Below, one piece after another: positions 1,321 through 37,502 of a stretch of DNA of 64,000 bases (position 1 is its first letter; each line of letters begins with the position of its first letter). The stretch comes from Escherichia phage vB_EcoM_ECO78. The stretch lies in sequence record PP526941.1; one strand, 5' to 3'. Made by a program: the position numbers and the translations under genes. The notes beneath the pieces were generated by a model. It did not search any database. It was not told where the DNA came from and saw only the letters and a list, made by a program, of their open reading frames with translations.

Positions 1321-1507
1321 TATCTAAAATGTTGAAGTTAAAAGATACAGCCCAGTCAGTGCAGACCGTAACCTTTTTAATACAATTATCTTCAACCTCT
1401 AGCGGTTCAAACCAATATTCAATAATTTCTTTATGCCCAATATCATCTTTTACTTCGCATTCAAAATGCTGACTCATCATAACATTTTTAAATTCATCAA
1501 AAGTCAT
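1244..1507 (-). CDS. Hypothetical small protein (46.2 position)
   Basis: 87-aa ORF; ATG overlaps gp47 stop (ATGA coupling). Confidence 0.5.
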   Translation of the reverse strand: MTFDEFKNVMMSQHFECEVKDDIGHKEIIEYWFEPLEVEDNCIKKVTVCTDWAVSFNFNILDNDTPKSLQDMAVSCIKDAYCEVFDI

Positions 1508-2523: not shown

Positions 2524-2660
2524 ATATCAAGAACCGTCATTGAAATGCAAAATAAAATTATTGAAATAAATCCATCTGGTGTGCTAAAGAACCCAATCCA
2601 ACATGCTCTAGTGAATAGATAAAATGCAAGAAAAAGTATCACATATCCAAGAAATATCAT
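2520..2660 (-). CDS. Small hydrophobic protein (46 aa), putative membrane peptide
   Basis: ATG at 2660, stop overlaps gp47 ATG (ATGA); translation MIFLGYVILFLAFYLF... is strongly hydrophobic; below the 60-aa cutoff of the ORF track. Confidence 0.35.
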   Translation of the reverse strand: MIFLGYVILFLAFYLFTRACWIGFFSTPDGFISIILFCISMTVLDI

Positions 2661-2684
2661 TATATCAAACTCCGTATAAAGCTA

Positions 2685-2700
2685 AAGGGCCGAAGCCCTT
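2685..2700 (-). terminator. Stem-loop GGGC-UUCG-GCCC immediately after a-gt stop; terminator or RNA-stability hairpin
   Basis: Perfect 4-bp GC stem with UUCG tetraloop on minus transcript, followed by a U-rich tract. Confidence 0.45.
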
Positions 2701-3902: not shown

Positions 3903-3968
3903 TTAATATCCTCTTTGTTTTGGTTTATTTTACCAAAAATTTATAAAGCAATATAGGAGCCGAAGCTC

Positions 3969-4142
3969 CTATCCGCATAATACGCCATACAAAGGCTCAT
4001 TAGAACTTCTAAATTTTATGCGCTTATATGTTATAGTTCCTTCTGCTTTAGCTTTATCATGAGACTCTTTAAAGCGTCTCATCATTTCCTCTTTAGAGGA
4101 ACGAATTTTATTATAATCTATTTCAGAAGTCTGGGTGTTCAT
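3969..4142 (-). CDS. Possible small ORF (57 aa), unknown function
   Basis: ATG at 4142 to TAG at 3969; weak SD; stop overlaps GGAGC-UUCG-GCUCC hairpin at 3957-3970. Confidence 0.25.
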   Translation of the reverse strand: MNTQTSEIDYNKIRSSKEEMMRRFKESHDKAKAEGTITYKRIKFRSSNEPLYGVLCG

Positions 4143-4145
4143 CTT

Positions 4146-4352
4146 TCACAGTTGCCACCATTTTTTGACTTGATAAGAATCAACCCACACTTTCATATTA
4201 GGGTCTGCTCTTACAATAGGAGGATTAACTTCTTTAATTGAACTATCATGGTATTCTTTTTCAGAAATTTTCACACAAAGATGACCATTCAAAGATTCAG
4301 TAAATCCTGCATTAATTTTAAGACGCTTGAATTTTACGTGTGTAAGCATCAA
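4146..4352 (-). CDS. Hypothetical protein (68 aa)
   Basis: ORF in the a-gt to 55 interval; overlaps upstream ORF end. Confidence 0.4.
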   Translation of the reverse strand: MMLTHVKFKRLKINAGFTESLNGHLCVKISEKEYHDSSIKEVNPPIVRADPNMKVWVDSYQVKKWWQL

Positions 4353-4635
4353 TCATATCCTCAATCTGCGATCTAGTAGTCTTCCAAAGAATACTAATGA
4401 GTTCATCGTTATATGGCTGTTTTAGAATATCCCGACTTTTCTTGATAGCATATTCGTATTGAGCAAAATTATTATTTTCAGCTGCAATCTGAGCGTGCTT
4501 ATAAAGACGGTTCAGTTCGCGTTTGTTTTTAGACAATAACTTATTTGCTTTTCTTTCTGCTTCAAGACGGTTCTTTTCTTCAATAGAAGAAATAAGCTTT
4601 TCCACTTCATCATTAATTTCGGGTTTATCAGTCAT
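4318..4635 (-). CDS. Hypothetical protein (105 aa), coiled-coil rich
   Basis: ORF with charged heptad-like sequence; a-gt to 55 interval. Confidence 0.55.
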   Translation of the reverse strand: MTDKPEINDEVEKLISSIEEKNRLEAERKANKLLSKNKRELNRLYKHAQIAAENNNFAQYEYAIKKSRDILKQPYNDELISILWKTTRSQIEDMIDAYTRKIQAS

Positions 4636-4636
4636 A

Positions 4637-4855
4637 TTATTTCTCTAATATAAAATAAAAATCATCATCTGTTAAATGATACCGATAATTTAATTCTACA
4701 CCATTAGATTTAAAAGCGGTATCATACGGATTTTCTGGATCAATATCAATGTCAAGAGCTAAAACTTCCCTGAGATACATTTTAAGTAAATAGGGAATAG
4801 CTTCAACTTCAGGTATTTCTTCCAAGAATCCGGAGAGGTTAATCGTTAGCCTCAT
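4637..4855 (-). CDS. Hypothetical protein (72 aa)
   Basis: ORF whose ATG lies within the last codons of gene 55. Confidence 0.45.
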
Positions 4856-5396
4856 ATAAAAAATCCAAACTAGGAGAATCGTCTACAACACTTTTCTTTT
4901 CAGCCCCTGGTGTTCTATAGGTTGATTCTTCGTAATGCGTCATTTTATCGTAGATGTCTTGAATAAAAGTTTCATCTACTAACGCAACCATATCGTCGTC
5001 ACGACTGTCATAGACATTGTGAACGAAGTAACTATATTTCTTTGCAACTTCCTTACGTTCTTTTTTAATACGTTGGACGAATGCATTAAAACAAGCTTGA
5101 GTTATATACGCATGTGGGTTTTTATATTTCGTTTCATCAAAATTGTGAAGCCCCTTAATAGAAGCTTCTATACCATCTGCAATCATTTCTTGTTTCCAAG
5201 ACTGGGTGTATCCTGAAAAGTTGAAACGTTTAGATAAGCCTTCTGCAATAAGCATAATGGCTAATCCGATAGTATCATTCTGACGAACTACTTTATTTGG
5301 GTCTTTATTATTTGCTAATTCTGTTTTCCAATCAATAATAGCTTGTAAAAGCTCTTTATTGTTTACGTAATTATATTTAGGCTTAGTTTCTGACAT
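4839..5396 (-). CDS. 55: Late-transcription sigma factor gp55
   Basis: 185 aa from second ATG ([21 protein letters not shown]...), matches T4 gp55 length and N-terminus by recall. Confidence 0.9.
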
Positions 5397-5474
5397 TTTC
5401 ACCTCTTAGCTCAATTCATAGATCTATTATATCATAATATTTGAAGATCTATCTTAAAGCATAGAGGATATCAG

Positions 5475-5744
5475 TTATCTAAGTAAACAGTATGCTTGGA
5501 ATACTTTCTCCATCATCTTTTTAAATTCATGAATATCTATATAATGACTAGTTAGATCAGCATGATATAAAAAGTCTAAAAACTTTTCATGTGTACTAAC
5601 ATATTCACTTTCATTTAATTCAGAAACATGACTTTCCCAATATCCAACACCAGTCTTATTTGGGAAAAATGAAATTTTCATGTATTGATCAACATAGAAA
5701 ATGCCATAATTTTCAATAGTAATAGAAATATTAATTAATTTCAT
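5475..5744 (-). CDS. Hypothetical protein (89 aa)
   Basis: ORF in 55.x block. Confidence 0.5.
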   Translation of the reverse strand: MKLINISITIENYGIFYVDQYMKISFFPNKTGVGYWESHVSELNESEYVSTHEKFLDFLYHADLTSHYIDIHEFKKMMEKVFQAYCLLR

Positions 5745-5956
5745 ACATTTATCAGCTTAGCCGCTCCAAGAGCTGCATCTAGTGAATCAAATTGGTCAAC
5801 ATATTCAATCAATTCGCCATAATTGGCATATAACCACCATTGGCTAAATTCATACTCAAGGATGAATCCGTTTCCTTCAATTTGAGTTAAACCAATGCCA
5901 TTTGTATTTACTTCATATCCAGCGAGACGTAAATCATTAATAAGAGCTTCGTTCAT
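5741..5956 (-). CDS. Hypothetical protein (71 aa)
   Basis: ORF; start overlaps upstream stop. Confidence 0.5.
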   Translation of the reverse strand: MNEALINDLRLAGYEVNTNGIGLTQIEGNGFILEYEFSQWWLYANYGELIEYVDQFDSLDAALGAAKLINV

Positions 5957-5958
5957 AA

Positions 5959-6285
5959 TTATACCTTAGTAATTTTCAGGTCTGCAAATTTTTTCTTGCG
6001 TTGATTTTTCATGCGACGAATAGTCTTATCGGAAATTTCATGCTTTTGATAAGCTTTAGATTCTACACCAAAAGCTTTAACATCAAATTCTGACAAGATA
6101 TACTGAACCAGCAATTCACGGACAGTATTGCGTCCAATCTTCTGATCGTTCTGTTTCATCGTCTGATGAAGCTCTTTTTCCCATTTATCCAAAATTTGAG
6201 GAGTTACAATATCGCCTTTTTCTAGCAAAGAAACTACTTTATCATATGCATAAGAATTGATGGCGTTTTTAATTTGAATAGTCAT
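5959..6285 (-). CDS. Hypothetical protein (108 aa), basic C-terminus
   Basis: ORF with SD GAGGATAA upstream of ATG. Confidence 0.55.
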   Translation of the reverse strand: MTIQIKNAINSYAYDKVVSLLEKGDIVTPQILDKWEKELHQTMKQNDQKIGRNTVRELLVQYILSEFDVKAFGVESKAYQKHEISDKTIRRMKNQRKKKFADLKITKV

Positions 6286-6320
6286 ACATTATCCTCAATT
6301 ACGTTAAAATTTTATTATCC

Positions 6321-6338
6321 AAAAAAGGGCCGAAGCCC
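6321..6338 (-). terminator. Rho-independent terminator (GGGC-UUCG-GCCC + U6)
   Basis: On minus transcript GGGCUUCGGCCC followed by UUUUUU, directly after stop of ORF 6339-6539. Confidence 0.65.
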
Positions 6339-6539
6339 TTAGCTAAACTTTTTGGCACCCTTCCAGCCTTCATACATCATTGCGGCTGATATTAATATTG
6401 CTCCTGAGCAACTTGAATATTTGTGATTCCAAAACCAGTTTAGAAAAACTTCGTCATCAATACCTTGAGCTATCATATTTTCAAAGAACTGACGACGAGC
6501 TTCAGCAATTCGTTGCGATAATTTAGATTCAGGATTCAT
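6339..6539 (-). CDS. Hypothetical protein (66 aa)
   Basis: ORF followed by terminator hairpin. Confidence 0.5.
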   Translation of the reverse strand: MNPESKLSQRIAEARRQFFENMIAQGIDDEVFLNWFWNHKYSSCSGAILISAAMMYEGWKGAKKFS

Positions 6540-6674
6540 TTAAATTTCCCACCAATTGCCATTTTCATCAATAAATTTAATCCAATCATTTACTGACCAC
6601 TTAGTTGTATCACCTTTTGGAGTAACATTTAAAGTGTATAGCCCTTGCTTAAAAAGCATTCGTTTGATATTCAT
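6540..6674 (-). CDS. Hypothetical small protein (about 44 aa from internal ATG)
   Basis: SD GAGGAAA then ATG (MNIKRMLF...); track ORF 6540-6758 extends upstream into neighbouring gene. Confidence 0.4.
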   Translation of the reverse strand: MNIKRMLFKQGLYTLNVTPKGDTTKWSVNDWIKFIDENGNWWEI

Positions 6675-6681
6675 ATTTTCC

Positions 6682-6975
6682 TCAGCTGTAACGATAACAC
6701 TCATTTGATTTGCGCTTAGCAACTCGTTGAGAAGTATTGTAATCAAAATCATCGTCAATGTAAACTGATTTTTTCAACTTTCTTACTTCGCCACGTAATT
6801 GGCGATTTAGCTCATCTTTAACTTCTGAATCAATGCCTTTCATTCTACGCCATTTATCTGAGCGAAAAATGTTTTCAACCATATCTTTATGACTTACACC
6901 ATCAGGAGCTTTACGCTTTCCGAAATAGTCATAATCACGAACTTTCAAGTCTTTACGACGATACGTTTTACCCAT
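6682..6975 (-). CDS. Hypothetical basic protein (98 aa)
   Basis: SD AAGGAAA 9 nt before ATG (MGKTYRRKDLKV...); lysine/arginine rich. Confidence 0.55.
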   Translation of the reverse strand: MGKTYRRKDLKVRDYDYFGKRKAPDGVSHKDMVENIFRSDKWRRMKGIDSEVKDELNRQLRGEVRKLKKSVYIDDDFDYNTSQRVAKRKSNECYRYS

Positions 6976-7144
6976 GGAGTTTAATTTCCTTAGCAACTGA
7001 ACTAAATACGGCACGATCGCAAATCATCTGTTTATTCCATTTAAGTACAGTATAATGAACATCTAGATCATCTACTGCTGTAACAATAACAATATGTCCG
7101 TTAACACGATAATACTGATCTCTTTTAATCTCTTTATCAACCAT
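6968..7144 (-). CDS. Hypothetical small protein (58 aa)
   Basis: SD GAGGA 6 nt before ATG at 7144; stop overlaps next start; not in ORF track (under 60 aa). Confidence 0.4.
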   Translation of the reverse strand: MVDKEIKRDQYYRVNGHIVIVTAVDDLDVHYTVLKWNKQMICDRAVFSSVAKEIKLHG

Positions 7145-7174
7145 ATCAAATCCTCAAAGGCAATTCATATGTTA

Positions 7175-7204
7175 ATAATACCACAGTTTGAACTTGTTGT
7201 AAAC
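7175..7204 (-). promoter_or_regulatory. Early (sigma70-like) promoter
   Basis: Minus strand GTTTAC - 18 nt - TATTAT with TGG extended -10 and A/T-rich upstream. Confidence 0.6.
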
Positions 7205-7283
7205 AACTTTGTGAAAAATATTTTAGGGAATGATAAGAAAGGAACGATAGCTTAGAATGGTAATATACAGAATGTGAGAAAGA

Positions 7284-7300
7284 AAGGCCCAGAGGGCCCG
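7284..7300 (-). terminator. Stem-loop GGCCC-UCU-GGGCC after nrdH; putative terminator
   Basis: GC-rich hairpin followed by U-rich tract on minus transcript. Confidence 0.5.
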
Positions 7301-7302
7301 TC

Positions 7303-7611
7303 TTAATCTTCTATGATATCTCTATCATATCCAAGTGAAATGAGAGTTTCTTTGAAGTGTTTAATGTTCTTTTGTCTAGAATCATTAATGAAAATGACTG
7401 GATAACGAATGTTAAGAGATGTGAATCCAGCGCGTTTAGCAAGAGATACAATCAGTGGACGATCATACTCAATCTTACCATTATTTGTAAGAACTTTATA
7501 GAAAGTAAAAGGAGCATTGAGCTCCTTTAGAAGTTTTGTAACTGATTGACATCCAGGACAACGACCTACTTCATCTGGAATTCCATAGACTTCAATCTTA
7601 TTTTGTTTCAC
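7303..7611 (-). CDS. nrdH: Glutaredoxin/NrdH-like redoxin
   Basis: 102 aa; CPGC redox motif near N-terminus; adjacent to nrdG/nrdD. Confidence 0.8.
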   Translation of the reverse strand: MKQNKIEVYGIPDEVGRCPGCQSVTKLLKELNAPFTFYKVLTNNGKIEYDRPLIVSLAKRAGFTSLNIRYPVIFINDSRQKNIKHFKETLISLGYDRDIIED

Positions 7612-7613
7612 AA

Positions 7614-7826
7614 CTATTCCTTACTAAGAGCAGCATTCAGCTTGTTAGTAATTTTATCCAGACGCTCATTGAATTCACTAGAAGATAAGCCCTTTTCTGG
7701 AGAAATCAAACTAATCACGAAAAATATAGCAATAAAAGGAATAAGGAAAATAGCTCCAACTGCCATAAACAGAAAGAATGTTACAGTTGTAAGAAAATCA
7801 GCTAAACCTTTACGAAATTTATACAT
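7614..7826 (-). CDS. Small membrane protein (70 aa)
   Basis: Central hydrophobic stretch VTFFLFMAVGAIFLIPFIAIFFVISLI. Confidence 0.55.
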   Translation of the reverse strand: MYKFRKGLADFLTTVTFFLFMAVGAIFLIPFIAIFFVISLISPEKGLSSSEFNERLDKITNKLNAALSKE

Positions 7827-7944
7827 TTACCTTTACCTTTAATTAATTAACCAAGCATTGATAAGCACTAAACTATATTGCGAATAAAATTCTGGACCAA
7901 AATGAAAAATCATATCATTTATAGTGTCCATAATATAATTCAAT

Positions 7945-8415
7945 TTAATCATGTTTCCACACCCCATCGGTATTTGACCAAAGTCGCTGATTATCTGATC
8001 CTCGCCACAACTTTTTGGTCGGAAGATTTTTCTCATACTTCCCATCAATAATAACATCAACATATTTAAGCATTTCTAGTTGTTTAATATCTTCAAACTT
8101 ATATCCTGTCCACAACCAAATGCTTTTATTGGGATAAAGATTTTTTACTGTTTGAACAATGCAATGAATAACATCTCGGTTATCAGGATAGAGAGGGTCT
8201 CCTCCAGTTATAGTTAATCCTTCTATATAATCATTATTCAAACATTCAATCAATTGTTCTAGTGTTTCACCAGTGAATGGAATACCATTTCTAGCATTCC
8301 ATGTTGATTTATTATAACACCCTTCACATTTATGCAAACAACCTGTAACGAAAAGAACGACCCTGCAACCAGGGCCATTCACAAAATCGCAAGGATAAAA
8401 TCTATCATAATTCAT
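7945..8415 (-). CDS. nrdG: Anaerobic ribonucleotide reductase activating protein (radical SAM)
   Basis: 156 aa; CxxxCxxC motif CLHKCEGC; overlaps nrdD stop. Confidence 0.9.
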   Translation of the reverse strand: MNYDRFYPCDFVNGPGCRVVLFVTGCLHKCEGCYNKSTWNARNGIPFTGETLEQLIECLNNDYIEGLTITGGDPLYPDNRDVIHCIVQTVKNLYPNKSIWLWTGYKFEDIKQLEMLKYVDVIIDGKYEKNLPTKKLWRGSDNQRLWSNTDGVWKHD

Positions 8416-10229
8416 TGGTGTTTAACCCTATGCATGATTTCTTTATTTTTACCGAGATTAAATCCGCGTTCGTTCGGATTTCCCAAATAACCACATGTTC
8501 TTCTTATGGTATTCATCTTTTTAGGATCAGTTTCTCCACAAATAGAACAAACAAATCCGTTTTCAGTAGGAGTCATTTCATGGGTACTTCCACATGTAAA
8601 ACATTTATCTACTGGCATATTAACACCAAAATAATCTAAATGTTGTGCAGCATAATCCCATACAGCCTCAAGACCTTTTAAGTTATTTTTCATATCAGGA
8701 AGTTCAACATAAGAAATGTGACCACCTGTCGCAATGAAATGATATGGCGCTTCACGAGAAATCTTTTCAAACGGAGTAATATTTTCTTCTACTGAAACAT
8801 GGAAACTATTAGTGTACCAACCTTTATCGGTAACATCTTTTACACTTCCATATTTTTCTGTATCGAGTTTACAGAAGCGATAACAAAGGTTTTCAGCAGG
8901 AGTAGAATATAAACTAAAAGCAAATCCAGTTCTTTCAGTCCACTGTTTAAGATGAGCATTCATTTTAGTTAAAATTTCTTGCCCAATATCGCGACCGACA
9001 AGAATATTCAATTCGTGAATACCAATGTATCCCAAAGACACTGAACTTCTACCGTTTTTAAATAACTCAATTATGTCGTCATCAGGTTTAAGACGAACCC
9101 CGAATGCACCTTCTTGGTAAAGAATAGGAGCAACAGTTGCTTTAACTCCTTTTAAGGAACTAATTCTACACATCAAAGCTTCAAAACATAAATCCATTCG
9201 TTCATTGAACAATTCGGCAAATTTCTGTTCATTGAATTGTGTTCCAATATAAGAATCTAACGCAATGCGAGGAAGATTCAGTGTTACAACGCCAAGATTA
9301 TTACGTCCATCAAGAATTTCATTACCAGTCGAATCTTTCCATACGCTCAAGAAACTACGGCAACCCATTGGAGAAACAGGAATAGATGAACCAGTGATAG
9401 CTTTATTATTCTTAACTGAAATAATATCAGGATACATTCTTTTGCTTGCACACTCTAAAGCAAGCTGCTTAATATCATAGTTCGGGTCGTCTTTATAAAG
9501 ATTAACACCTTCTTCAACGAACATAACAAGCTTAGGGAAAATAGGAGTTATCCCATCACGACCAAGACCTTTAATACGATTTTTCAGAATTGCTTTCTGA
9601 ATCATTCGTTCAGTCCAGTCAGTTCCCGTACCAAATGTAATTGTTACAAAAGGCGTTTGTCCGTTTGAACTAAAGAGAGTATTTACTTCATATTCATAAG
9701 CTTGGAATGCATCGTATACGTCTTTTTCTGTTTTAGATTGAGCATAATTCAACGCATCAGCGATTTGCCATTTTTCTGCATCCTCAATATGTTTTGCATA
9801 GGTGCGTTTAACATAAGGAGAAAGTACTTTATCTACATTCGCAAAAGTCGTTCCGCCGTATTGGTGAGAAGCAACTTGCGCAGTAATTTGTGCCATAATT
9901 GCAGTAGCAACGCCAATTGATTTAGGAGTTTCAATCTGTGCATTACCGAGCTTAAATCCGTTCTCAAGCATTCCTTTTAAATCTACTAAACAACAATTAG
10001 TAAATGGAAGAGCAGGGGAATAATCAATATCGTGGAAATGGATAATTCCGCTTTCATGCGCTTTCATAATAAAAGACGGGACCATATTTTTGGCAATGTG
10101 TTTAGACACAATACCAGCCATAAGGTCCCGTTGAGTTGGAAAAACACGAGAATCTTTATTAGCATTCTCGTTTAAAAGGTCTTTATTAGTTTTATGAATC
10201 AATCCTTCAATTTCTTTTTCAATTGTCAT
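8412..10229 (-). CDS. nrdD: Anaerobic ribonucleoside-triphosphate reductase (glycyl radical enzyme), uninterrupted
   Basis: 605 aa; C-terminal glycyl-radical motif RTCGYLG and Cys-rich zinc site; single continuous ORF. Confidence 0.9.
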   Translation of the reverse strand: MTIEKEIEGLIHKTNKDLLNENANKDSRVFPTQRDLMAGIVSKHIAKNMVPSFIMKAHESGIIHFHDIDYSPALPFTNCCLVDLKGMLENGFKLGNAQIETPKSIGVATAIMAQITAQVASHQYGGTTFANVDKVLSPYVKRTYAKHIEDAEKWQIADALNYAQSKTEKDVYDAFQAYEYEVNTLFSSNGQTPFVTITFGTGTDWTERMIQKAILKNRIKGLGRDGITPIFPKLVMFVEEGVNLYKDDPNYDIKQLALECASKRMYPDIISVKNNKAITGSSIPVSPMGCRSFLSVWKDSTGNEILDGRNNLGVVTLNLPRIALDSYIGTQFNEQKFAELFNERMDLCFEALMCRISSLKGVKATVAPILYQEGAFGVRLKPDDDIIELFKNGRSSVSLGYIGIHELNILVGRDIGQEILTKMNAHLKQWTERTGFAFSLYSTPAENLCYRFCKLDTEKYGSVKDVTDKGWYTNSFHVSVEENITPFEKISREAPYHFIATGGHISYVELPDMKNNLKGLEAVWDYAAQHLDYFGVNMPVDKCFTCGSTHEMTPTENGFVCSICGETDPKKMNTIRRTCGYLGNPNERGFNLGKNKEIMHRVKHQ

Positions 10230-10699
10230 TTTAAACTCTTTCTAAGCTGCTTCTTAAATGAAGCTATTAATTGTGTTTTGGTGTCAGATTCATTATATTC
10301 AAATCCTCTTTGAAGCATCTCAGCCATCATTTCCTCTTTTCCTAAACGAGAAAATTCCTTTGATTTATCTCCAACAAAGTTAGGGTGAATATTATTTTGG
10401 GTGTAATCGGATTTTAAATAAGTAAGTAAATTTTCTAACCATTCAAGATAATCAACCCCTTGTCCCTTTAAGCCAGAACGATTAAATTTATGTTTCATTT
10501 GACCTTCTGCGGCATTGCAGAGATTACAAAGCAATCCACGCACCTTTCCTGCTTTTGGTCCATTTAATTCATGGTCATGGTCAAGGTGATTAGCTTGAAC
10601 ATCAGGATTTAGTTCTCGTTGGCAAATTAAGCATTTACCGTTTTGTGCATCATAAAATTTCTGTTTTTCTTCTTTATATAATTTGCCAGTCAATAACAT
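10226..10699 (-). CDS. 49: Endonuclease VII (Holliday junction resolvase)
   Basis: 157 aa; zinc-binding CLICQ...HLDHDH; matches T4 gp49 by recall. Confidence 0.9.
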   Translation of the reverse strand: MLLTGKLYKEEKQKFYDAQNGKCLICQRELNPDVQANHLDHDHELNGPKAGKVRGLLCNLCNAAEGQMKHKFNRSGLKGQGVDYLEWLENLLTYLKSDYTQNNIHPNFVGDKSKEFSRLGKEEMMAEMLQRGFEYNESDTKTQLIASFKKQLRKSLK

Positions 10700-10740
10700 A
10701 ATAAACCCTTACCTTAAATAGATAAGGGTATTTATTATTT

Positions 10741-11226
10741 TCAAGTATTGTAAAACATTTGATGCAATCGCTTATATTGCTGAATCATTCGGTCAGAAAA
10801 AGAAATTTGAGTTTCAAGCCATTCAATGTACTCTGCGGCAGCTTGCATTAAATTTCCTTCATAACCATCGTTATTTTCTTGTGCAGCTAATTTAGCTAAT
10901 GCGTATGAAATGCGTTCACCTTGAAAATCGGCTTTAGGCTTCTGAACAACTTGATTAGTTCTCTCTACAACTTCTTCAATTTCGCCATTTTCGACTGATT
11001 CAGTATTCCACAAACACCAATATGTAATTGGCTTATCGTAGATATTAATAATCTTTCCATCAGAAAGTTCAATTTCAATAATTCCAGTATCAGGCTCTAT
11101 ATCATCTTCACATTCTTTTGCAAGTTCACGAACTTTAAAGACAGCACCTGCACTAAGTTCCGGCCAGTAATTACACAGTCCTATATCAACACGATTAATT
11201 CTAAACCACTTATCTACTGTAATCAT
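10741..11226 (-). CDS. Hypothetical protein (161 aa); positional equivalent of T4 pin
   Basis: Track ORF starts at TTG; SD GGAGA 6 nt before ATG at 11226; early promoter upstream. Confidence 0.55.
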   Translation of the reverse strand: MITVDKWFRINRVDIGLCNYWPELSAGAVFKVRELAKECEDDIEPDTGIIEIELSDGKIINIYDKPITYWCLWNTESVENGEIEEVVERTNQVVQKPKADFQGERISYALAKLAAQENNDGYEGNLMQAAAEYIEWLETQISFSDRMIQQYKRLHQMFYNT

Positions 11227-11266
11227 GTCCCATCTCCATATCAATTAAGTCATTTATCGTTGGTTC

Positions 11267-11296
11267 ATTATATACTGTTTCTTCATCAGTGTAAAC
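11267..11296 (-). promoter_or_regulatory. Early promoter
   Basis: Minus strand GTTTAC - 18 nt - TATAAT. Confidence 0.55.
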
Positions 11297-11348
11297 CGGT
11301 TCTTCCGGCTCTGGCTCTACAGTTTCCCATCTAGCCGCCCACCAGGGT

Positions 11349-11543
11349 TTAACACCGAAGCTTATTAAGTTCTTCATAATCAATCCAGGATTCTAATCCT
11401 GATGGCAAATCAGATTCAATTTCCCAAAGAAGCTCTTCAATTTTCTGAAGACGATCTAGTTCTTCAGCTGGAATAGTAACCATTGATGGAGTTCTTGATA
11501 CACTAATATCGTAAATCATATTTACCCCAGTTTGACCATGCAA
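11349..11543 (-). CDS. Hypothetical acidic protein (64 aa)
   Basis: ORF between nrdC and pin-like gene. Confidence 0.45.
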   Translation of the reverse strand: MHGQTGVNMIYDISVSRTPSMVTIPAEELDRLQKIEELLWEIESDLPSGLESWIDYEELNKLRC

Positions 11544-11737
11544 TCACCGTATTTCCACTTAGAAATAGACTTTTCACCATTAGAATAATAAACTTCGAGT
11601 TTAGCACGATTATTTTTAATTTGAATAACCTTGGCTGTCATCAAAGTTCCATACCCGTAGTAAACTGCAACTTCATCACCTACATATACCGCGCTTCCGC
11701 GGTAATCATGGATATAATCAGTTCCTTCGAGAATCAT
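11522..11737 (-). CDS. Hypothetical protein (71 aa)
   Basis: ORF; start overlaps nrdC stop. Confidence 0.5.
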   Translation of the reverse strand: MILEGTDYIHDYRGSAVYVGDEVAVYYGYGTLMTAKVIQIKNNRAKLEVYYSNGEKSISKWKYGDCMVKLG

Positions 11738-11997
11738 TTAAAGTATTCCCGCAATTGGTCAAATCCACCAATATGACTTCCATCAGGAGCAAATATTTGT
11801 GGCATTGTCAAGCCGATTTGAGTATCACGACCTAGTTTCGTCAGAAGCTCAGCTATTTTCTCATCATCAAAAACACCTTTTTCCGGCATAATGTTGATAA
11901 ATTCAAATGGCTGTTTCTTCACGGTCAAAAGACGTTTTGCATTATCGCAATACACGCATTTATGGATGTTGCTATCATAACCATATACTTTAAACAT
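11734..11997 (-). CDS. nrdC: Thioredoxin (glutaredoxin-like) NrdC
   Basis: 87 aa; CVYC active site; same length as T4 NrdC. Confidence 0.85.
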   Translation of the reverse strand: MFKVYGYDSNIHKCVYCDNAKRLLTVKKQPFEFINIMPEKGVFDDEKIAELLTKLGRDTQIGLTMPQIFAPDGSHIGGFDQLREYFK

Positions 11998-11998
11998 A

Positions 11999-12241
11999 TT
12001 ATTCCTTAATTCCTAGTACTTGTTTAAAAGTCTCGTCGTAATCAAGACTTTGGCCCGTTTGTTCTTTATGTTTGTATATAATATCACTTACTTCTGATAG
12101 CATATTTTTATATGAACGAGTTAAAGCAGATTTAAGCACACTGTATCTATCAGGAAATTTACCATGTTCATTATAATAAGCTATTGCTAATTCACGGACT
12201 GCCTTTTCAGCAGTCTCCATATATTCTTTACGCTTGGTCAT
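11999..12241 (-). CDS. Hypothetical protein (about 80 aa)
   Basis: Internal ATG ([13 protein letters not shown]...) chosen because longer ORF overlaps the upstream gene in another frame. Confidence 0.45.
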
Positions 12242-12542
12242 TTTCTTCTCGGTCAAATCGGTGTTTACAATGACGACATTTATAACGAAGATTACTAGTC
12301 TGCCAATGAACCAATTGGACCTGTTCAGTTCCACATTCAGGGCAATTAGGAACGTTTTTAGAAGCACGTTCGCGGCGTTCAACCATGACCATTACAGAAT
12401 CCCAATTAACAGGAGGGCTATAATCATCACAACCATGAATCTTTCCACGCATTTCCAGATCGTCTTCTTCACCAGCCATAATAATTTTAATTAGACTAGA
12501 ATTACTTGAAGCTGCAATGTCTTCTAATAGACGCTTTTTCAT
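12228..12542 (-). CDS. Zinc-ribbon protein (104 aa)
   Basis: Cys pairs CPECG ... CRHCKH; ATGA overlap with upstream gene stop. Confidence 0.6.
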
Positions 12543-13468
12543 TTCAATACCTCAATAGCATTACGTAAACCATTTGCTTTTGCATTAAGAGCTTTTAACA
12601 ATTTGGTGTGTTCTGCAATTTGGGCTTCAACTTCAATCAAACGAGCATTGAGATATTCGCGTTCTTCGCTCAGGTTATCAACCTTTTCTACTTTAGGTTC
12701 TTTTACAACTGGCTTATACGTATTAGGGTTCTTCAGTTTAATTAGAATGCGTGAGCTGTATAACATTGAACCATTATCTTCGGTTTCATCATACATTTCC
12801 ACTACATCCATGATTTTTAACATCATGCGGAGTTTATAAGACAACGAACGAATAGTTTTGTTGTGCTTATTAATTTCTCTAGCTGTCATGGTGCCGAGAT
12901 TACGTGAGTAATAATAAGGAACCTGGATATTAATTAATACTGATGAACCACCTGGCTTGTGTGTTACTTCATCAGCAATAACCCAGTCCTTAACGTGAAC
13001 TGTATTTGTACGGTCATCGCCCGCGGTAAATAGTTTGCGAGCATGCTTAAAAAGCATATTCACTTGGTCATTGAATTGACAAGCAAATTTATCAGCAAAT
13101 TTAGTTTCAGGAATGGTAGATAACCAATCAGCCAAATGGGTCTTTTTAACATCGTTAACAATAGTAAATTCAACCAAATCGGTTATAGATGTCGCAGATT
13201 TAATGAAGCTCGGCTTCATAAAGTTTTCAATGTTATCACGAGCTACAGTAGAAGATAACATACGAGAACGTTTAAACCATTCAAGCAAATTGCCTAACGA
13301 ATGAGAATAAGCGTTCTGTGTATCTTTACAGATATGATTTTCCTGGCCAACATATTGAAGGAAATCACGAAGAATATTATTGATTACTGCTCTGTGTCCT
13401 ATCTGATAATTACGATGTTTAGTAATAAGACTGTCAAAATAATCAATATAATGTTTACGAGTTTTCAT
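12539..13468 (-). CDS. Paralog family member A (309 aa), C-terminal coiled coil
   Basis: N-terminus MKTRKHY; block FKRSRMLSSTVARDNIENF shared with neighbours; heptad-rich C-terminal 50 aa. Confidence 0.7.
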   Translation of the reverse strand: MKTRKHYIDYFDSLITKHRNYQIGHRAVINNILRDFLQYVGQENHICKDTQNAYSHSLGNLLEWFKRSRMLSSTVARDNIENFMKPSFIKSATSITDLVEFTIVNDVKKTHLADWLSTIPETKFADKFACQFNDQVNMLFKHARKLFTAGDDRTNTVHVKDWVIADEVTHKPGGSSVLINIQVPYYYSRNLGTMTAREINKHNKTIRSLSYKLRMMLKIMDVVEMYDETEDNGSMLYSSRILIKLKNPNTYKPVVKEPKVEKVDNLSEEREYLNARLIEVEAQIAEHTKLLKALNAKANGLRNAIEVLK

Positions 13469-13520
13469 GTTCTTCTCACTTGGTTAATGATTTATACTCC
13501 GAGCCATCCTTGGCTTTAAA

Positions 13521-14522
13521 TTACTTAATTAACTGTAAAGCTTGTTCCAAACGATCCAGACGATTAACAGATTCTTCCCAAATCCTTTTAGCCTGCTCAT
13601 ATTCTTTCTGCGCTTTATTAGAAATTTCTAGAACTTCTTTATAAGCTTTTTCTAATGCAATAACTTCTGGACGAATTTCTACCGATTCAGGCGAATCATC
13701 AAGATTATCCATTAGTTCCTCAAGGGTAGTTTCTTCTTTAGGAGTATTCACAATTTCATCACATTTTTGTTGGTAAATTTCTTTATCAGTTAGTGAATAA
13801 GCACACTTTACTTCACGAAGACTAACTACAATTTTATATCCTTCCCAACCGCATATATTCTTAAAAGGATAAGTATGAATATTTTCTACTGTTTCCATAC
13901 AAAGTAATGCGGTCTCTAATTGACGAGTTATAGTGCTAGCAATTGAGAAAAATTTATTAATATTCTTTTGGTTAGTTTCTGGTGTAAAAAATCCATAATT
14001 CACAAAAATAGATACTTTATTTTTATCAAGTTCATATTCTTTTATGATAATCATATCAGAAGCCAAAGGATGAATTTGACGATAATCGCCATAACATAAT
14101 TTAGAAGCTGATTTTAGAATTTGTCCTCTGAAAAGTCTGAAATTACTAATCCAACGACGAGTAAAAATATTCTCAGGGTCTTCTTTGACATTAAGATGAT
14201 AAGAATTAACATCACCGAACCAATTATATCCTACTACATCTTTGGTTCGTTTAATTTCTTTCCCAAAATTACCAAGAATATCCCGATTAACCAAATATGA
14301 AAGAAGACGAGACTCTTTAAAGGTTTTCTTGATAACATCTTTATCTACACGGCTAGAAATTTTACGAATTTCATGAATAAATTTAGCAGAAGAAACAATA
14401 CCTGCATCAACACTATTGAGCCACTGATTGATAATAGAAAGAACGCTATTTTGGCCAAACATCGGTATAGCTTTATCATCAATAACGCTATTGAATGATT
14501 TGATATATTCGTTGCGAGTCAT
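13521..14522 (-). CDS. Paralog family member B (333 aa), C-terminal coiled coil
   Basis: SD GAGGAG before ATG (MTRNEYIKSF...); block FKESRLLSYLVNRDILGNF; C-terminal coiled coil. Confidence 0.7.
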   Translation of the reverse strand: MTRNEYIKSFNSVIDDKAIPMFGQNSVLSIINQWLNSVDAGIVSSAKFIHEIRKISSRVDKDVIKKTFKESRLLSYLVNRDILGNFGKEIKRTKDVVGYNWFGDVNSYHLNVKEDPENIFTRRWISNFRLFRGQILKSASKLCYGDYRQIHPLASDMIIIKEYELDKNKVSIFVNYGFFTPETNQKNINKFFSIASTITRQLETALLCMETVENIHTYPFKNICGWEGYKIVVSLREVKCAYSLTDKEIYQQKCDEIVNTPKEETTLEELMDNLDDSPESVEIRPEVIALEKAYKEVLEISNKAQKEYEQAKRIWEESVNRLDRLEQALQLIK

Positions 14523-14550
14523 AATAATCTCCTCAGTAGAAAGTAAGAAC

Positions 14551-14580
14551 ATTATACCACATCCTTGTGGCAAAGTAAAC
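14551..14580 (-). promoter_or_regulatory. Early promoter upstream of paralog B
   Basis: Minus strand GTTTAC - 18 nt - TGGTATAAT (extended -10). Confidence 0.65.
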
Positions 14581-15584
14581 TAATTCAGTGCATTTAATGC
14601 ATTGTTCAGTTTAGAACGTTGCTTTGTCAGATTTTGAACCCTTGACTGAGCTTGTTCTAACACCTTTTCAGCTTCTAGCATTTCATTGGTTGCTTTAACT
14701 AATTCATCATCTACTGCCTTGATAGACTTCTCAATCGCGTCAGCGTGCCATTTTTCTACAGGTTTAAAATTTGAATTTTCAGTAGGAAGAAAACTCACTT
14801 TATTAAGTTTACATGCATCTATGTTACTTGAACTATACATCCAAAATTTAGAATCGTTTGATGAGTAGTTATCTTGCACTTCATGCTTTTTCTCTTGCGG
14901 GACTTCGTCCTTTCTCAAAAAATCGTATTTAAATGAAACGATCATATCAAGTTCATATGTTGTTGTGTCTAATTTAAATCGCTCAAAACGAGGTAAAATC
15001 TTAGACTGAACAGCGGCAACAACATCCATATACTTAAATGCTTCTGTCAACTGCGATTTAAGGCATTCACAAATTGAAAGAGAATTTTTTGTATTAGGTT
15101 TAAAGCTAATTCGTGCAGTTCTGTTATTTTCTTTTAATGGTCTTACTTCCATCTGAAGAGTATAACCATCAAATTTCAGGTTCTTTAAGTTAATGTCAGA
15201 GCCTTTTAATCGACTAGCCGTCGACAAAATTTGCTTTAATTGTTTACGGAATAGAGCAATAAATCTCCATTCAATACGATAATGATTTGGATTAAAAAAT
15301 CCAGATGATAAATCAACCTTACTCTGACCAACGCCTTGAACAAATAGAGGATTTTTATAATCAATAGTTTTACAGAAATCGGTGAGCTGCTCACGAGCCG
15401 TCATTTGTGTAATATACCCCGCTTTACTAAAATGACGTAACCATTCACTGCTATTCATATATTTAAAGTGAATATCACGATTAACTTTATCAGGGTCTAA
15501 ATTATTTTGGCACAAAAATGTCATAACATCACGAGTATAGCTGGCATTACGAACCATATCTTCAATTTGAGAACGAGTTTTCAT
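14580..15584 (-). CDS. Paralog family member C (334 aa), C-terminal coiled coil
   Basis: N-terminus MKTRSQIEDM; block FSKAGYITQMTAREQLTDF; SD AAGGAA; C-terminal coiled coil. Confidence 0.7.
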   Translation of the reverse strand: MKTRSQIEDMVRNASYTRDVMTFLCQNNLDPDKVNRDIHFKYMNSSEWLRHFSKAGYITQMTAREQLTDFCKTIDYKNPLFVQGVGQSKVDLSSGFFNPNHYRIEWRFIALFRKQLKQILSTASRLKGSDINLKNLKFDGYTLQMEVRPLKENNRTARISFKPNTKNSLSICECLKSQLTEAFKYMDVVAAVQSKILPRFERFKLDTTTYELDMIVSFKYDFLRKDEVPQEKKHEVQDNYSSNDSKFWMYSSSNIDACKLNKVSFLPTENSNFKPVEKWHADAIEKSIKAVDDELVKATNEMLEAEKVLEQAQSRVQNLTKQRSKLNNALNALN

Positions 15585-26917: not shown

Positions 26918-27131
26918 ATTTGACTTCCTCACCAGTACCCAAGTCATATTCAACTAAACGAATAGGTTCATGAATGCCATATCCCTGAACAGAAATTTCT
27001 GTAGTAGGATAAATTCCATTAATATCACCCATGTTCCATGCTTCGTTAAATTGCTGTTCGCCTGAATTACTAAACCATTCGGCGAAAGCATTTAGCACAT
27101 CTTCAGAACCTTCAATAATTATCTTTGCCAT
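26910..27131 (-). CDS. Hypothetical acidic protein (73 aa)
   Basis: ORF. Confidence 0.5.
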   Translation of the reverse strand: MAKIIIEGSEDVLNAFAEWFSNSGEQQFNEAWNMGDINGIYPTTEISVQGYGIHEPIRLVEYDLGTGEEVKYD

Positions 27132-27493
27132 TACAAACTCTCGGTAAAGGTACGAGCGATAACGTCGCGCTGCTGTTCCGGAGTCAGAGAGTTAAAGCGA
27201 ACTGCATAACCGGATACACGGATGGTCAGCTGCGGATATTTTTCCGGATGCTTAACTGCATCTTCCAGAGTTTCGCGACGCAGAACGTTAACGTTCAGGT
27301 GTTGACCACCTTCAATTTTAACTGTAGGTTGTGGCTCAATTTCAATTTCACGGGCATGCAAACCGTAGAAAATTTCTGGGTCTACAAAAGAGTCCTCTTT
27401 AAAGGTTTTAGAGACAATAATTCGTGCTTGAATACCATCTTCAAAATAAATAGTACCTTTATGTGTGCCTTCAAGAATTTGATATGCTTTCAT
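27131..27493 (-). CDS. GrcA/YfiD-like autonomous glycyl-radical cofactor protein
   Basis: C-terminal 60 aa [60 protein letters not shown] identical to recalled E. coli GrcA; host-like codons (CTG/CGT/CCG). Confidence 0.85.
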
Positions 27494-27500
27494 ATAAACC

Positions 27501-27830
27501 TCAATTAGAAAATAAATTTATCCAAGATTGTTCTTTAATTAAAAATGGCTCAGAATCATATGCCATTAAACTCTGGGTAATTAATCCTTTAAAAGGTCCA
27601 TCAATAAACTCCATTGTAAAATATGGAATTTTATTCATTAGCCGTGCATTAGGAGCAGTGCACAAAACTCTGCATCCTTTGAATACGCCTTTTTGTAATT
27701 TGTATTGCTTGGGATAAAATTCGCTCAAAATATTATTATTCGCTAAAATTTCAAAATGATTCACCAATTTATTTTTAATAGTTTTTGGCGAAAAATAAAG
27801 ATATTCGAAAAGCTGAGTGTCTGTCATCAT
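27501..27830 (-). CDS. Hypothetical protein (109 aa)
   Basis: ATG overlapping upstream stop (ATGA). Confidence 0.5.
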
Positions 27831-36025: not shown

Positions 36026-36101
36026 TGGTCGAGGCAGTAGGGATCGAACCTACGACCCAGGACTTAGAAGGTCCTTGCTCTTCCTTCTGAGCTATGCCCC
36101 G
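36026..36101 (-). tRNA. tRNA-Arg (anticodon UCU)
   Basis: 76 nt; cloverleaf by eye: acceptor CGGGGCA/TGCCTCG, anticodon loop CTTCTAA, T-loop GGTTCGATCC, encoded CCA. Confidence 0.8.
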
Positions 36102-36105
36102 TAAT

Positions 36106-36181
36106 TGGGGTGACCGATGGGAGTCGAACCCATGACTACGAGAATCACAATCTCGAGTTCTACCAACTAAACTACGGCCAC
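36106..36181 (-). tRNA. tRNA-His (anticodon GUG)
   Basis: 76 nt; acceptor GTGGCCG/CGGTCAC, anticodon loop TTGTGAT, T-loop GGTTCGACTCC, encoded CCA. Confidence 0.75.
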
Positions 36182-36294
36182 ATTAATACCTACTCCAACA
36201 ATCAAGATGTCTTCACACGAAATTAAGAGAAGAGTGATCAGTTCAACCCTATAATCGCGTCAAGTAGATATTAATGTGACAGTTGTCACAAATT

Positions 36295-36369
36295 TGGCGG
36301 ACGTGATAGGATTCGAACCTATAACCAATCGCTTAACAGGCGATCGCTCTGCCATTGAGCTACACATCC
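36295..36369 (-). tRNA. tRNA-Asn (anticodon GUU)
   Basis: 75 nt; acceptor GGATGTG/CACGTCC, anticodon loop CTGTTAA, T-loop GGTTCGAATCC, encoded CCA. Confidence 0.8.
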
Positions 36370-36373
36370 AAAT

Positions 36374-36460
36374 TGGTGGGGAGTGATGGAGTCGAACCAC
36401 CCGAGTCGCAATGACAATGGATTTACAGTCCACACCGCTACCTCTACGGGATAACTCCCC
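36374..36460 (-). tRNA. tRNA-Tyr (anticodon GUA), long variable arm
   Basis: 87 nt; acceptor GGGGAGT/ACTCCCC, anticodon loop CTGTAAA, T-loop GGTTCGACTCC, encoded CCA. Confidence 0.75.
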
Positions 36461-36473
36461 TTAATTCTTAATT

Positions 36474-36548
36474 TGGTGGCCCTGGGTGGAATTGAACCAC
36501 CATCTGGCGATTATGAGTCGCTTGCTTGAACCTTCCAGCTACAGGGCC
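36474..36548 (-). tRNA. tRNA with anticodon CAU (Ile2-like or Met)
   Basis: 75 nt; anticodon stem-loop GCGACTCATAATCGC resembles tRNA-Ile2 (lysidine type); T-loop GGTTCAATTCC; encoded CCA. Confidence 0.7.
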
Positions 36549-36556
36549 AAATTTTC

Positions 36557-37039
36557 TTATTTTATGTAATATTTATTTAAAAACTTTCTAGCTTGAGTAT
36601 GGCTAACATTTATAGCGTTTGCATAATTTTTAATAAAACCTCGTTCATCCATATTAAAATTTTCTAATATTTTTAATCGTCTAGTTATCTCATCTTGACT
36701 TAAGGTACTTGCATTATTTTTAGAAATTTTTTCTAAGGACTGTGCCGAGTGTTTTCTACCATTAAAATTAAAATTTTTAGATTTTGGAGGAAATCTAGCA
36801 TTTAATCTCGCATCTTTTGTATTTTGATTATTAGTTGCGCAATATATGTTATTTAATGAATATGGTCCTTTATCGCCGAAACGGCACATGCAGTATTCAT
36901 GACCCTTTCTTCCACGCTTATCATAATTTCCCGTCGATTTCCACCAATGCAGCCATTCATCAAAAGTTAAATTCCATTCAATGTTTCTACGTATAGCAGA
37001 ATTCCGCTGAGAAATATATTTTGCATAATCTTCTTTCAT
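36557..37039 (-). CDS. Putative HNH-like homing endonuclease / DNA-binding protein with NUMOD3 motif
   Basis: 160 aa; motif GRKHSAQSLEKISKNNAS (NUMOD3-like), C-terminal HTH-like tail, N-terminal His/Cys/Asn cluster; inserted between tRNA-Ser and the CAU tRNA. Confidence 0.55.
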   Translation of the reverse strand: MKEDYAKYISQRNSAIRRNIEWNLTFDEWLHWWKSTGNYDKRGRKGHEYCMCRFGDKGPYSLNNIYCATNNQNTKDARLNARFPPKSKNFNFNGRKHSAQSLEKISKNNASTLSQDEITRRLKILENFNMDERGFIKNYANAINVSHTQARKFLNKYYIK

Positions 37040-37086
37040 CACAAATTTCTCTACTTATTCAATACACTGAGCTAAATCAGCAAAAC

Positions 37087-37176
37087 TGGCGGAGGCGATA
37101 GGATTTGAACCTATGAGTCGCCGGAGCGACTGCCGGTTTTCAAGACCGGTGCATTAAACCACTCTGCCACGCCTCC
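37087..37176 (-). tRNA. tRNA-Ser (anticodon UGA), long variable arm
   Basis: 90 nt; acceptor GGAGGCG/CGCCTCC, anticodon loop CTTGAAA, T-loop GGTTCAAATCC, encoded CCA. Confidence 0.8.
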
Positions 37177-37178
37177 AG

Positions 37179-37252
37179 TCTCCATACAAGGATTTGAACC
37201 TTGGACCTCCTGATCCCAAATCAGGCGCTCTACCAAACTGAGCTACACGGAG
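37179..37252 (-). tRNA. tRNA-Pro (anticodon UGG)
   Basis: 74 nt; D-arm GCTCAGTTTGGTAGAGC, anticodon loop TTTGGGA, T-loop GGTTCAAATCC; CCA not encoded. Confidence 0.8.
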
Positions 37253-37262
37253 TAAATTAAAT

Positions 37263-37336
<74 letters not shown>

Positions 37337-37341
37337 AAATT

Positions 37342-37428
37342 TGGTGCGAGAAGTGGGACTCGAACCCACAAGGAAATCATTCCGCAGCATTTTAAGTGCT
37401 GTGCCTTTACCAATTTGACCATTCTCGC
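37342..37428 (-). tRNA. tRNA-Leu (anticodon UAA), long variable arm
   Basis: 87 nt; acceptor GCGAGAA/TTCTCGC, anticodon loop CTTAAAA, T-loop GGTTCGAGTCC, encoded CCA. Confidence 0.8.
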
Positions 37429-37429
37429 G

Positions 37430-37502
37430 CTGGGAATAAAGGACTCGAACCTTTGCATCCTGGAATCAAAATCCAGTGCCTTACCAACTTGGCTAATTCC
37501 CA
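37430..37502 (-). tRNA. tRNA-Gln (anticodon UUG)
   Basis: 73 nt; acceptor TGGGAAT/ATTCCCA, anticodon loop TTTTGAT, T-loop GGTTCGAGTCC; CCA not encoded. Confidence 0.8.

Follow-up and report, generated by a model that had tools for sequence, protein, structure and literature searches.

The gene vs.6 of Escherichia phage vB_EcoM_ECO78 (sequence record PP526941.1) encodes the autonomous glycyl-radical cofactor of T-even phages, a homolog of the bacterial protein GrcA/YfiD, and lies on the minus strand of the 64,000-nucleotide (nt) stretch of DNA that we analyzed (hereafter the window). The half of vs.6 that encodes the glycyl-radical domain has probably been overwritten with DNA of the host gene grcA, by repeated gene conversion in the host-to-phage direction. 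vs.6 is a full-length grcA homolog built of two parts of very different age.

A Host-Identical Tract in the 3′ Half of vs.6

Searched with blastn against 5,426 complete E. coli genomes, gene nt 179–363 matched the 3′ half of grcA at 97.8% identity in every genome, and gene nt 1–178 gave no match. The match contains an uninterrupted tract in which 172 of 172 nt are identical to K-12-type grcA, preceded in codon 59 by one extra E. coli-type base. Past nt 178 the two genes differ at four positions, all of them synonymous and all confined to the last 13 nt, i.e. to the last four codons. In a maximum chi-square analysis, identity changes from 44% on the left to 98% on the right of a breakpoint located at gene nt 178 (0 of 2000 permutations reached the observed value), and at the 3′ boundary of the tract the mismatches change from 0/172 to 4/12 (Fisher p = 1e-5). 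This identity is higher than conservation of the protein would give: phage homologs with a near-identical C-terminal protein sequence, and without recent exchange, show 71–85% nt identity to the best enterobacterial grcA, in runs of 11–29 nt.

The two halves of the gene also differ in composition. GC content rises from 0.34 in the 5′ half to 0.49 in the 3′ half, compared with 0.351 for the whole window, and GC content at third codon positions (GC3) is 0.20 in the 5′ half and 0.448 in the tract. The latter value exceeds that of all 1,209 sliding 58-codon windows of the long open reading frames (ORFs) in the window (mean 0.228, maximum 0.431). All five leucine codons of the tract are CTG and all three proline codons CCG, codons that make up 6% of leucine and 12% of proline codons across the window ORFs. 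A sequence-only reading of the window had described a GrcA/YfiD-like gene with an AT-rich, phage-like 5′ half, a GC-rich 3′ half in host-like codons, the radical-glycine motif RVSGYAVRF, and ~60 C-terminal codons with a product identical to GrcA. The mosaic structure is borne out by the comparison with E. coli grcA and by the composition scan, both of which that reading had proposed; the ~60-codon figure holds for the protein, which is identical over GrcA residues 67–127, whereas identity in DNA extends over 57 codons.

Within window positions 14801–39800, the tract is the sole stretch that matches E. coli chromosomes (megablast, the same 5,426 genomes). Positions 1–14800, which encode NrdD (anaerobic ribonucleotide reductase), NrdG, and a glutaredoxin-like protein, gave no match in these genomes despite the existence of host counterparts, and host-derived tracts are therefore not general among the host-related genes of this phage. 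pflB was rejected as the donor, since its DNA shares only ~80% identity with the tract.

Only the sharpness of the junction would suit host contamination or chimeric assembly as the source of the E. coli-like stretch. However, the same junction occurs in 632 independently sequenced phage records, including the 1980s T4 entry X04567, T2, RB69, the T4 RefSeq record, and many Tequatrovirus and Mosigvirus phages, and the tract always starts at grcA nt 200. It is in frame, has phage sequence on both sides, and contains phage-specific substitutions. We regard the likelihood of an artifact as negligible.

Host-to-Phage Transfer

Synonymous divergence (dS) between vs.6 and E. coli grcA is 0 over the 57 tract codons and 0.09 over the last 61 codons. 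For the 3′ half of bacterial grcA, dS between E. coli and Citrobacter, Enterobacter, Klebsiella, and Salmonella is 0.42, 0.63, 0.81, and 1.06, respectively; the corresponding 5′-half values are 0.50, 0.80, 0.82, and 0.91. Bacterial grcA evolves as one unit, its two halves having about the same dS whichever species are compared; the transfer was therefore from host to phage. The phage-to-host direction was rejected on the same grounds, the bacterial values also following the species relationships. The phage tract is nearer to E. coli K-12 than is the grcA of another Escherichia species, and the transfer dates to the period in which E. coli itself was diversifying.

The sequence-only reading had offered recent recombination with the host gene and strong conservation of a radical-domain module as alternative explanations. 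The low dS over the last 61 codons, set against 0.42 for Citrobacter and 1.06 for Salmonella over the same segment, favors the former. Module conservation fails on ~43 identical synonymous sites and on synonymous variants that follow the host, which are described below.

Coliphages of Two Genera Share the Tract

The window belongs to a T-even phage of the genus Tequatrovirus. Compared with the Mosigvirus phages RB69 and AlbertHofmann, it shows 71–83% identity in vs.7, 70–77% in vs.5, and 88–93% in the 5′ half of vs.6 (dS 0.36–0.41); the tract stands out from these as an island of 97–100% identity, or 95–100% when scanned in 60-nt windows (dS 0.07–0.17). A tract older than the split of the genera would be expected to carry ~12 synonymous differences between them, and 1–4 are observed. 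The tract is younger than the divergence of Tequatrovirus and Mosigvirus, and much younger than the remainder of vs.6.

Variation within the coliphage genes partly mirrors that of the host. The E. coli CGC/CGT polymorphism at gene nt 219 occurs in both states in both phage genera, and the CAT codon of T4 is one step from CGT. One E. coli allele is matched exactly by the window tract, whereas a second (E2865-type) is the nearest to the tracts of other phages. In the last 12 nt, E. coli-type and phage-type bases are mixed differently in T4 (ACT GAA AGT TTG), the window, OES_C-2 (ACT GAG AGC CTG), and Mosigvirus (ACT GAG AGT CTA). No unconverted coliphage allele of vs.6 was seen among Tequatrovirus or Mosigvirus.

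The coliphage-type gene is also present in Tequatrovirus phages isolated on other bacteria. Yersinia phage PYps47T (MT515755.1) has an E. coli-type tract with 97.8% DNA identity to E. coli grcA, and in Proteus phage Isf-Pm2 (OL741432.1), the product shows 99.2% identity to the window protein, a figure that refers to protein alone. The tract may be a record of a recent E. coli host.

A Klebsiella-Type Tract in Jiaodavirus

In Klebsiella phage KP1 (Jiaodavirus), the 3′ half of vs.6 is 95.4% identical to grcA of K. pneumoniae, 91.4% to that of K. aerogenes, and 86.9% to that of E. coli. The first 110 nt of the homologous region contain 14 sites that separate E. coli from K. pneumoniae grcA; the window is E. 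coli-type at 14/14, and the Jiaodavirus phages KP1 and Shinkou are K. pneumoniae-type at 14/14. In protein, the two types of domain are distinguished by two residues (E/L and K/E in ETL-DAV-HPEKY). The Jiaodavirus tracts begin at the same codon as those of the coliphages and vary in length, from ~110 nt in KP1 and 125 nt in Shinkou to 157 nt (with one mismatch) in IMG/VR L128 and ~163 nt in IMG/VR L101 and L180. Past the tract ends, the Jiaodavirus genes share a common phage-type 3′ end. Such nesting is the trace that would be expected of repeated conversion, or of conversion followed by erosion.

These variants bear on the idea that the host 3′ half was captured once, in the distant past, and has since been held by selection at the nucleotide level, e.g. 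for codon optimality, mRNA structure, or translational coupling. A single capture would fit the identical 5′ breakpoint of all 632 tract-bearing records (query start 200), the extreme purifying selection on the radical domain at the protein level (dN, nonsynonymous divergence, 0.007–0.04), and the somewhat higher GC content of the 3′ half in all Straboviridae homologs examined. However, codon selection cannot give 0 differences at ~43 synonymous sites (P ~1e-12 to 1e-17), and the synonymous variants are specific to the host, being uniformly E. coli-type in the coliphages and uniformly K. pneumoniae-type in Jiaodavirus at the diagnostic sites. Other phage homologs with the same protein sequence are only 75–85% identical in DNA, and between phage genera the 5′ half of vs.6 has diverged much more than the tract. 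We consider a single ancient capture very improbable.

For the K. oxytoca phage PKO111, identity to K. pneumoniae grcA is only 88.5%, in a comparison without a K. oxytoca allele. A T4-like metagenomic contig of 91 kb (L123; IMGVR_UViG_3300008607_000007) contains, in the last ~190 nt of a vs.6-like ORF, a run of 53 nt identical to Haemophilus parainfluenzae grcA (L075), or of ~70 nt with one mismatch, and the run is absent from the sibling contigs L121, L124, and L126. As a third host-specific tract this is only suggestive after allowing for multiple comparisons, and we do not count it as evidence.

Three database entries encountered here call for comment. The PLSDB entry CP125156.1 (“plasmid unnamed2”) is in fact a K. 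pneumoniae chromosome of 5.37 Mb. In K. aerogenes NCTC10006 (LR134122.1), a one-base insertion in an A-run, probably a sequencing error, truncates the annotated coding sequence of grcA. NZ_JBQPOM010000029.1, labelled Vagococcus sp. WN89Y, contains an enterobacterial-type grcA and is probably contaminated or mislabelled.

Probable Recurrence of the Exchange

In the course of events that we propose, the starting state would be a phage with an old, AT-rich, full-length grcA homolog. During infection, a heteroduplex would form between this homolog and host grcA DNA, for which host fragments produced during infection are a plausible source, and homologous recombination (gene conversion) with the chromosomal gene would overwrite the radical-domain part. 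The converted tract would span from the first codon of remaining phage/host likeness (Glu60) to within 13 nt of the stop codon. Its 5′ limit would be the point at which phage/host similarity collapses; its 3′ limit may reflect the presence of the vs.5 start signals in the last 13 nt, where phage-type bases are perhaps selected. The presence of an E. coli-type tract in T4-like and RB69-like coliphages, and of a K. pneumoniae-type tract of variable length in Jiaodavirus, would imply more than one event.

A more restricted series of events, with one conversion in each host lineage (E. coli and K. pneumoniae) followed by phage-to-phage spread and partial erosion, would produce many of the same patterns. 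T-even phages recombine freely. The 5′ end is identical in all carriers, the island of low divergence between Tequatrovirus and Mosigvirus fits lateral spread equally well, and the nested 3′ ends in Jiaodavirus, like the mixed last 12 nt in the coliphages, can equally be read as erosion by unconverted alleles. Against this stand the presence of both E. coli states of nt 219 (C/T) in each phage genus, the match of the window tract to one E. coli allele when other phages are closest to the E2865-type, and the failure to see any unconverted, eroding allele in either coliphage genus, although none of these is decisive. We think it rather unlikely that one conversion per lineage accounts for the tracts, but give the possibility some weight.

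Several points weigh against repeated host-to-phage conversion. The recombination mechanism is inferred from the pattern in the sequences. The shared 5′ breakpoint marks the end of homology and is compatible with one event per host lineage and phage-to-phage spread, and the shared C/T variation at nt 219 is explicable as recurrent mutation. The comparison with K. pneumoniae uses a single allele, taken from a chromosome labelled as a plasmid in PLSDB; in a scan of GTDB genomes, which listed at least 80 grcA loci with K. pneumoniae not among them, the identity of the Jiaodavirus tract to the listed loci was an unremarkable 85–88%. Among 50,697 phage records (megablast), the maximum identity was 83.8% for S. 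enterica grcA and 88.7% for E. asburiae grcA, and exact 26-nt words specific to Salmonella or Enterobacter had no occurrence in IMG/VR; as neither collection has a Salmonella- or Enterobacter-type tract, host tracking is not general. Homologs from Slopekvirus, Karamvirus, Krischvirus, and T5-like phages likewise show 75–85% identity to grcA. At the protein level, Vs.6 scores 153.3 bits over residues 20–120 with the NCBIfam GrcA equivalog model TIGR04365, under the 170-bit cut-off, an operational threshold tuned to bacterial proteins; it falls below the cut-off because its N-terminal half has diverged. Finally, we know of no demonstrated benefit of vs.6 to the phage in vivo.

Repeated conversion nonetheless remains our preferred explanation. 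In its strongest form, the radical-domain half would be re-copied again and again from the chromosome of the current host, with identity easing further exchange so that the module renews itself; the chances of this we judge to be evenly balanced. The tract may be kept by selection, for a host-matched domain and host-optimal codons, or simply because identical sequences recombine easily, and both are compatible with the data. If the module is indeed renewed in this manner, it would stay matched to the pyruvate formate-lyase (PFL) system of the host and record recent host history, and vs.6 would offer an unusually clear example, accessible to experiment, of a virulent phage that still recombines with the chromosome of its host.

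Domain Organization and Predicted Function

Vs.6 belongs to the size class (~120–130 residues) of small stand-alone proteins that consist essentially of a glycyl-radical domain at the C terminus, with RVSGYAVRF as the radical loop. The protein matches Pfam Gly_radical (PF01228; 66.8 bits, cut-off 22.2, residues 61–101) and the NMR (nuclear magnetic resonance) structure of E. coli YfiD/GrcA (PDB 6OWR; E = 9e-42), and its domain matches PflB residues 697–759 (E = 5e-26). In RefSeq, the T4 and RB69 proteins are named “autonomous glycyl radical cofactor GrcA”, despite the sub-cut-off TIGR04365 score of the window protein. As a sequence-based assignment, the placement of vs.6 by family and structure is unambiguous, in line with the GrcA/YfiD-like call of the sequence-only reading.

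Residues 1–60 of YfiD are disordered and aid both binding to cleaved PFL and installation of the radical, and residues 61–127 have the fold of PFL residues 693–759 and bear the radical (PMC8683613; also PMC13450708). The host-identical tract of vs.6 covers almost the whole of the structured glycyl-radical domain. Upstream of it, residues 22–59 are colinear with GrcA residues 28–66 (33% identity over 39 residues, E = 4e-5 in a single BLASTP comparison), and the profile and phmmer 6OWR alignments begin at Vs.6 residues 20–22. Searched alone against NCBIfam, the N-terminal half gave no match even at E values up to 10, and the homology of this part is weak. The N-terminal half nevertheless appears to be an old grcA homolog and not a foreign fusion partner. 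Compared with Mosigvirus, the 5′ half of the gene has a dN/dS ratio of ~0.13–0.15, indicative of purifying selection, and is therefore functional. In terms of the spare-part mechanism, the phage would retain its own N-terminal half, implicated in activation and in the binding of cleaved PFL, and take over the host radical domain unaltered.

The gene, its family, and the biochemical role of vs.6/Y06I are already known. According to the account of Wagner (2001; pmid 11444864) given in PMC8683613, PFL activase installs a radical on the glycine of YfiD or Y06I, which in this activated form binds to PFL that oxygen has cut at Gly734 and makes it catalytically active again. The window protein is identical to T4 Y06I at 119/120 residues, the sole change being Arg74 for His, and it is expected to have the same PFL-rescue activity because the domain that inserts into the PFL active site does not differ from that of host GrcA. 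In this mechanism, the host PFL-activating enzyme would put the radical on Gly95, as established for T4 Y06I and inferred for the window copy, and the C-terminal domain would slot into host PFL that oxygen has cleaved at Gly734. Production of acetyl-CoA and formate would be restored, and the fermentative energy supply presumably sustained in low-oxygen infection.

The T4 reference (X04567, 1501–1863) has His (CAT) at residue 74, corresponding to window 27274–27276. Arg, encoded by CGC or CGT, occupies this position in the window, in E. coli GrcA, and in all other phages sampled. The Y06I protein of the published biochemistry presumably carried His74.

Relation to the Phage Anaerobic Ribonucleotide Reductase

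The sequence-only reading had linked the gene to the phage NrdD, in the sense that Vs.6 might serve as a spare radical domain for this enzyme instead of host PFL. Oxygen cleaves NrdD, too, at the glycine that bears the radical. Both NrdD and NrdG are encoded in the window, and in the Aeromonas phages PX29 and phiWae14, vs.6 adjoins nrdG; the order in PX29 (GU396103.1, L184:859-4447) is nrdD-nrdG-vs.6-nrdC-nrdH, with a 23-nt overlap of nrdG and vs.6. However, NrdD has a motif of its own, RRTCGYLG, in contrast to the RVSGYAVRF of Vs.6, and the two proteins have no detectable similarity (BLASTP E = 6, with the radical loops unaligned). The Vs.6 domain is identical to that of host GrcA and of PFL type, given its match to PflB, and the domain of PX29 Vs.6 is likewise PFL-type and not NrdD-type. 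Y06I, moreover, rescues cleaved PFL together with PFL activase (Wagner, 2001, as reported in PMC8683613), and the window nrdD is without a host-derived tract. The gene order of PX29, the only hint of a link to NrdD, suggests co-expression of functions for anaerobic growth, which it fits better than an NrdD spare part, and we see little chance that Vs.6 serves NrdD.

Genomic Context and Features

A 15-kb piece around vs.6 is 96.4% identical to Escherichia phage vB_Eco_T-01 and 94–96% identical to many T4-like coliphages. The gene order, ipIII-ipII-denV-vs.8-vs.7-vs.6-vs.5-vs.4-vs.3-regB, is that of T4, and the ORF is 98.6% identical in nt sequence to T4 ORF 63.1 (X04567) and 99.4% to its T2 counterpart; it is therefore vs.6, with Y06I as its product. 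The comparison with a T4 homolog, also proposed in the sequence-only reading, returns an ortholog. The ATG of vs.5 shares one base with the stop codon of vs.6 (TAATG overlap), a GAGAG Shine-Dalgarno-like run for vs.5 lies inside the last 13 nt of vs.6, and X04567 annotates a ribosome-binding site for ORF 62.7 at the vs.6 3′ end. Coordinates are given in Table 1.

Table 1. Positions in the window of vs.6, its parts, and related or flanking genes
Feature	Window position	Strand	Basis or remark
vs.6/Y06I ORF, 120 residues, GrcA/YfiD homolog	27131..27493	-	ORF list, T4/T2 identity, synteny, Pfam/TIGR04365/6OWR
vs.6 start codon (ATG)	27491-27493	-	
vs.6 stop codon (TAA)	27131-27133	-	
Phage-type 5′ half of vs.6, gene nt 1–178, residues 1–59	27316..27493	-	GC, GC3, low grcA identity
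Host-identical tract, gene nt 179–350, residues 60–116 (GrcA 67–123)	27144..27315	-	172/172 vs grcA nt 200–371
Glycyl-radical motif RVSGYAVRF, residues 92–100	27194..27220	-	Alignments to 6OWR, 1H16/2PFL
Radical glycine Gly95 (GGT)	27209-27211	-	Aligns with GrcA Gly102 and PflB Gly734
Last 13 nt of vs.6 (C GAG AGT TTG TAA), phage-type 3′ end	27131..27143	-	4 synonymous differences from grcA
vs.5 homolog, 73 residues	26910..27131	-	Phage-type flank without host similarity
vs.7 homolog, 109 residues counted from ATG	27501..27830	-	Upstream phage-type flank
NrdD, intact	8412-10229	-	
NrdG, intact	7945-8415	-	

Elsewhere in the window, ten tRNA genes are clustered on the minus strand at 36026-37502 (Arg-TCT, His, Asn, Tyr, Met-CAT, Ser-TGA, Pro, Gly, Leu-TAA, and Gln). 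Positions 36309-36464, in the Asn/Tyr region, are 83–90% identical to tRNA-Tyr/tRNA-Thr annotations on ~100-kb E. coli plasmids, which may be phage-plasmids with related tRNA genes.

Comparison with Known Systems

vs.6 is one of the ORFs conserved among T4-like genomes (PMC1524935), and a GrcA-like homolog is carried by 1,588 phage records. What is apparently new is the evolutionary pattern of the vs.6 tract, not the gene or its function: the tract coincides with one functional domain and is replaced by a Klebsiella-type tract in Klebsiella phages. In the open-access literature, we found no account of the nucleotide mosaic of vs.6, of its coincidence with the radical domain, or of the Klebsiella replacement, although an earlier mention is possible. 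To our knowledge, the DNA of T-even phages has almost nothing in common with that of their hosts. vs.6 displays the hallmarks of a host-derived recombinant segment, namely excess identity with a sharp breakpoint, host-like composition, and host tracking. If exchange is ongoing, vs.6 would be a natural reporter of the rate at which a virulent phage copies host chromosomal DNA, and could reveal both the recombination and host-DNA-breakdown functions required and the recent host of an isolate.

The closest relative, T4 Vs.6/Y06I (NP_049730; ORF 63.1 of X04567), is an ortholog in the same position between vs.7 and vs.5. It differs from the window protein at residue 74, as described above, and in DNA its E. 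coli-type stretch extends 4 nt further at the 3′ end. E. coli GrcA/YfiD (P68066) is likewise small and stand-alone, its N-terminal half being disordered and its C-terminal part forming the glycyl-radical domain, but the N-terminal half of the window protein falls short of that of GrcA by 7 residues, with just ~33% identity across 39 residues, and vs.6 lies in a phage early-gene cluster, not beside ung, and without the host regulatory context. The C-terminal domain of PflB (1H16/2PFL, residues 693–759) has the same fold element and RVSGYAVRF loop and is the part that the spare protein replaces, although in PflB it belongs to a 759-residue enzyme. Genes of T5-like phages (Demerecviridae), Krischvirus, Slopekvirus, and Karamvirus have the same architecture and encode a near-identical radical-domain protein. 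Their 3′ halves show 75–85% identity to every enterobacterial grcA tested, in runs of at most 29 nt, and represent the state without a recent tract.

Intragenic recombination between host and phage has been described for psbA and psbD of cyanophages, which are also T4-like (Sullivan et al., 2006; PMC1484495). vs.6 resembles these genes in being a host-derived metabolic gene with patchy composition, in which segments have been exchanged between host and phage copies. In contrast to the cyanophage case, the host of vs.6 is enteric, and vs.6 itself is a spare-part gene of 120 codons whose tract coincides with a single functional domain. T4-type phages also differ in that they replace cytosine with hydroxymethylcytosine. 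For vs.6, unlike cyanophage psbA, the tract agrees base for base with the current host species, and it does so in two separate pairs of host and phage.

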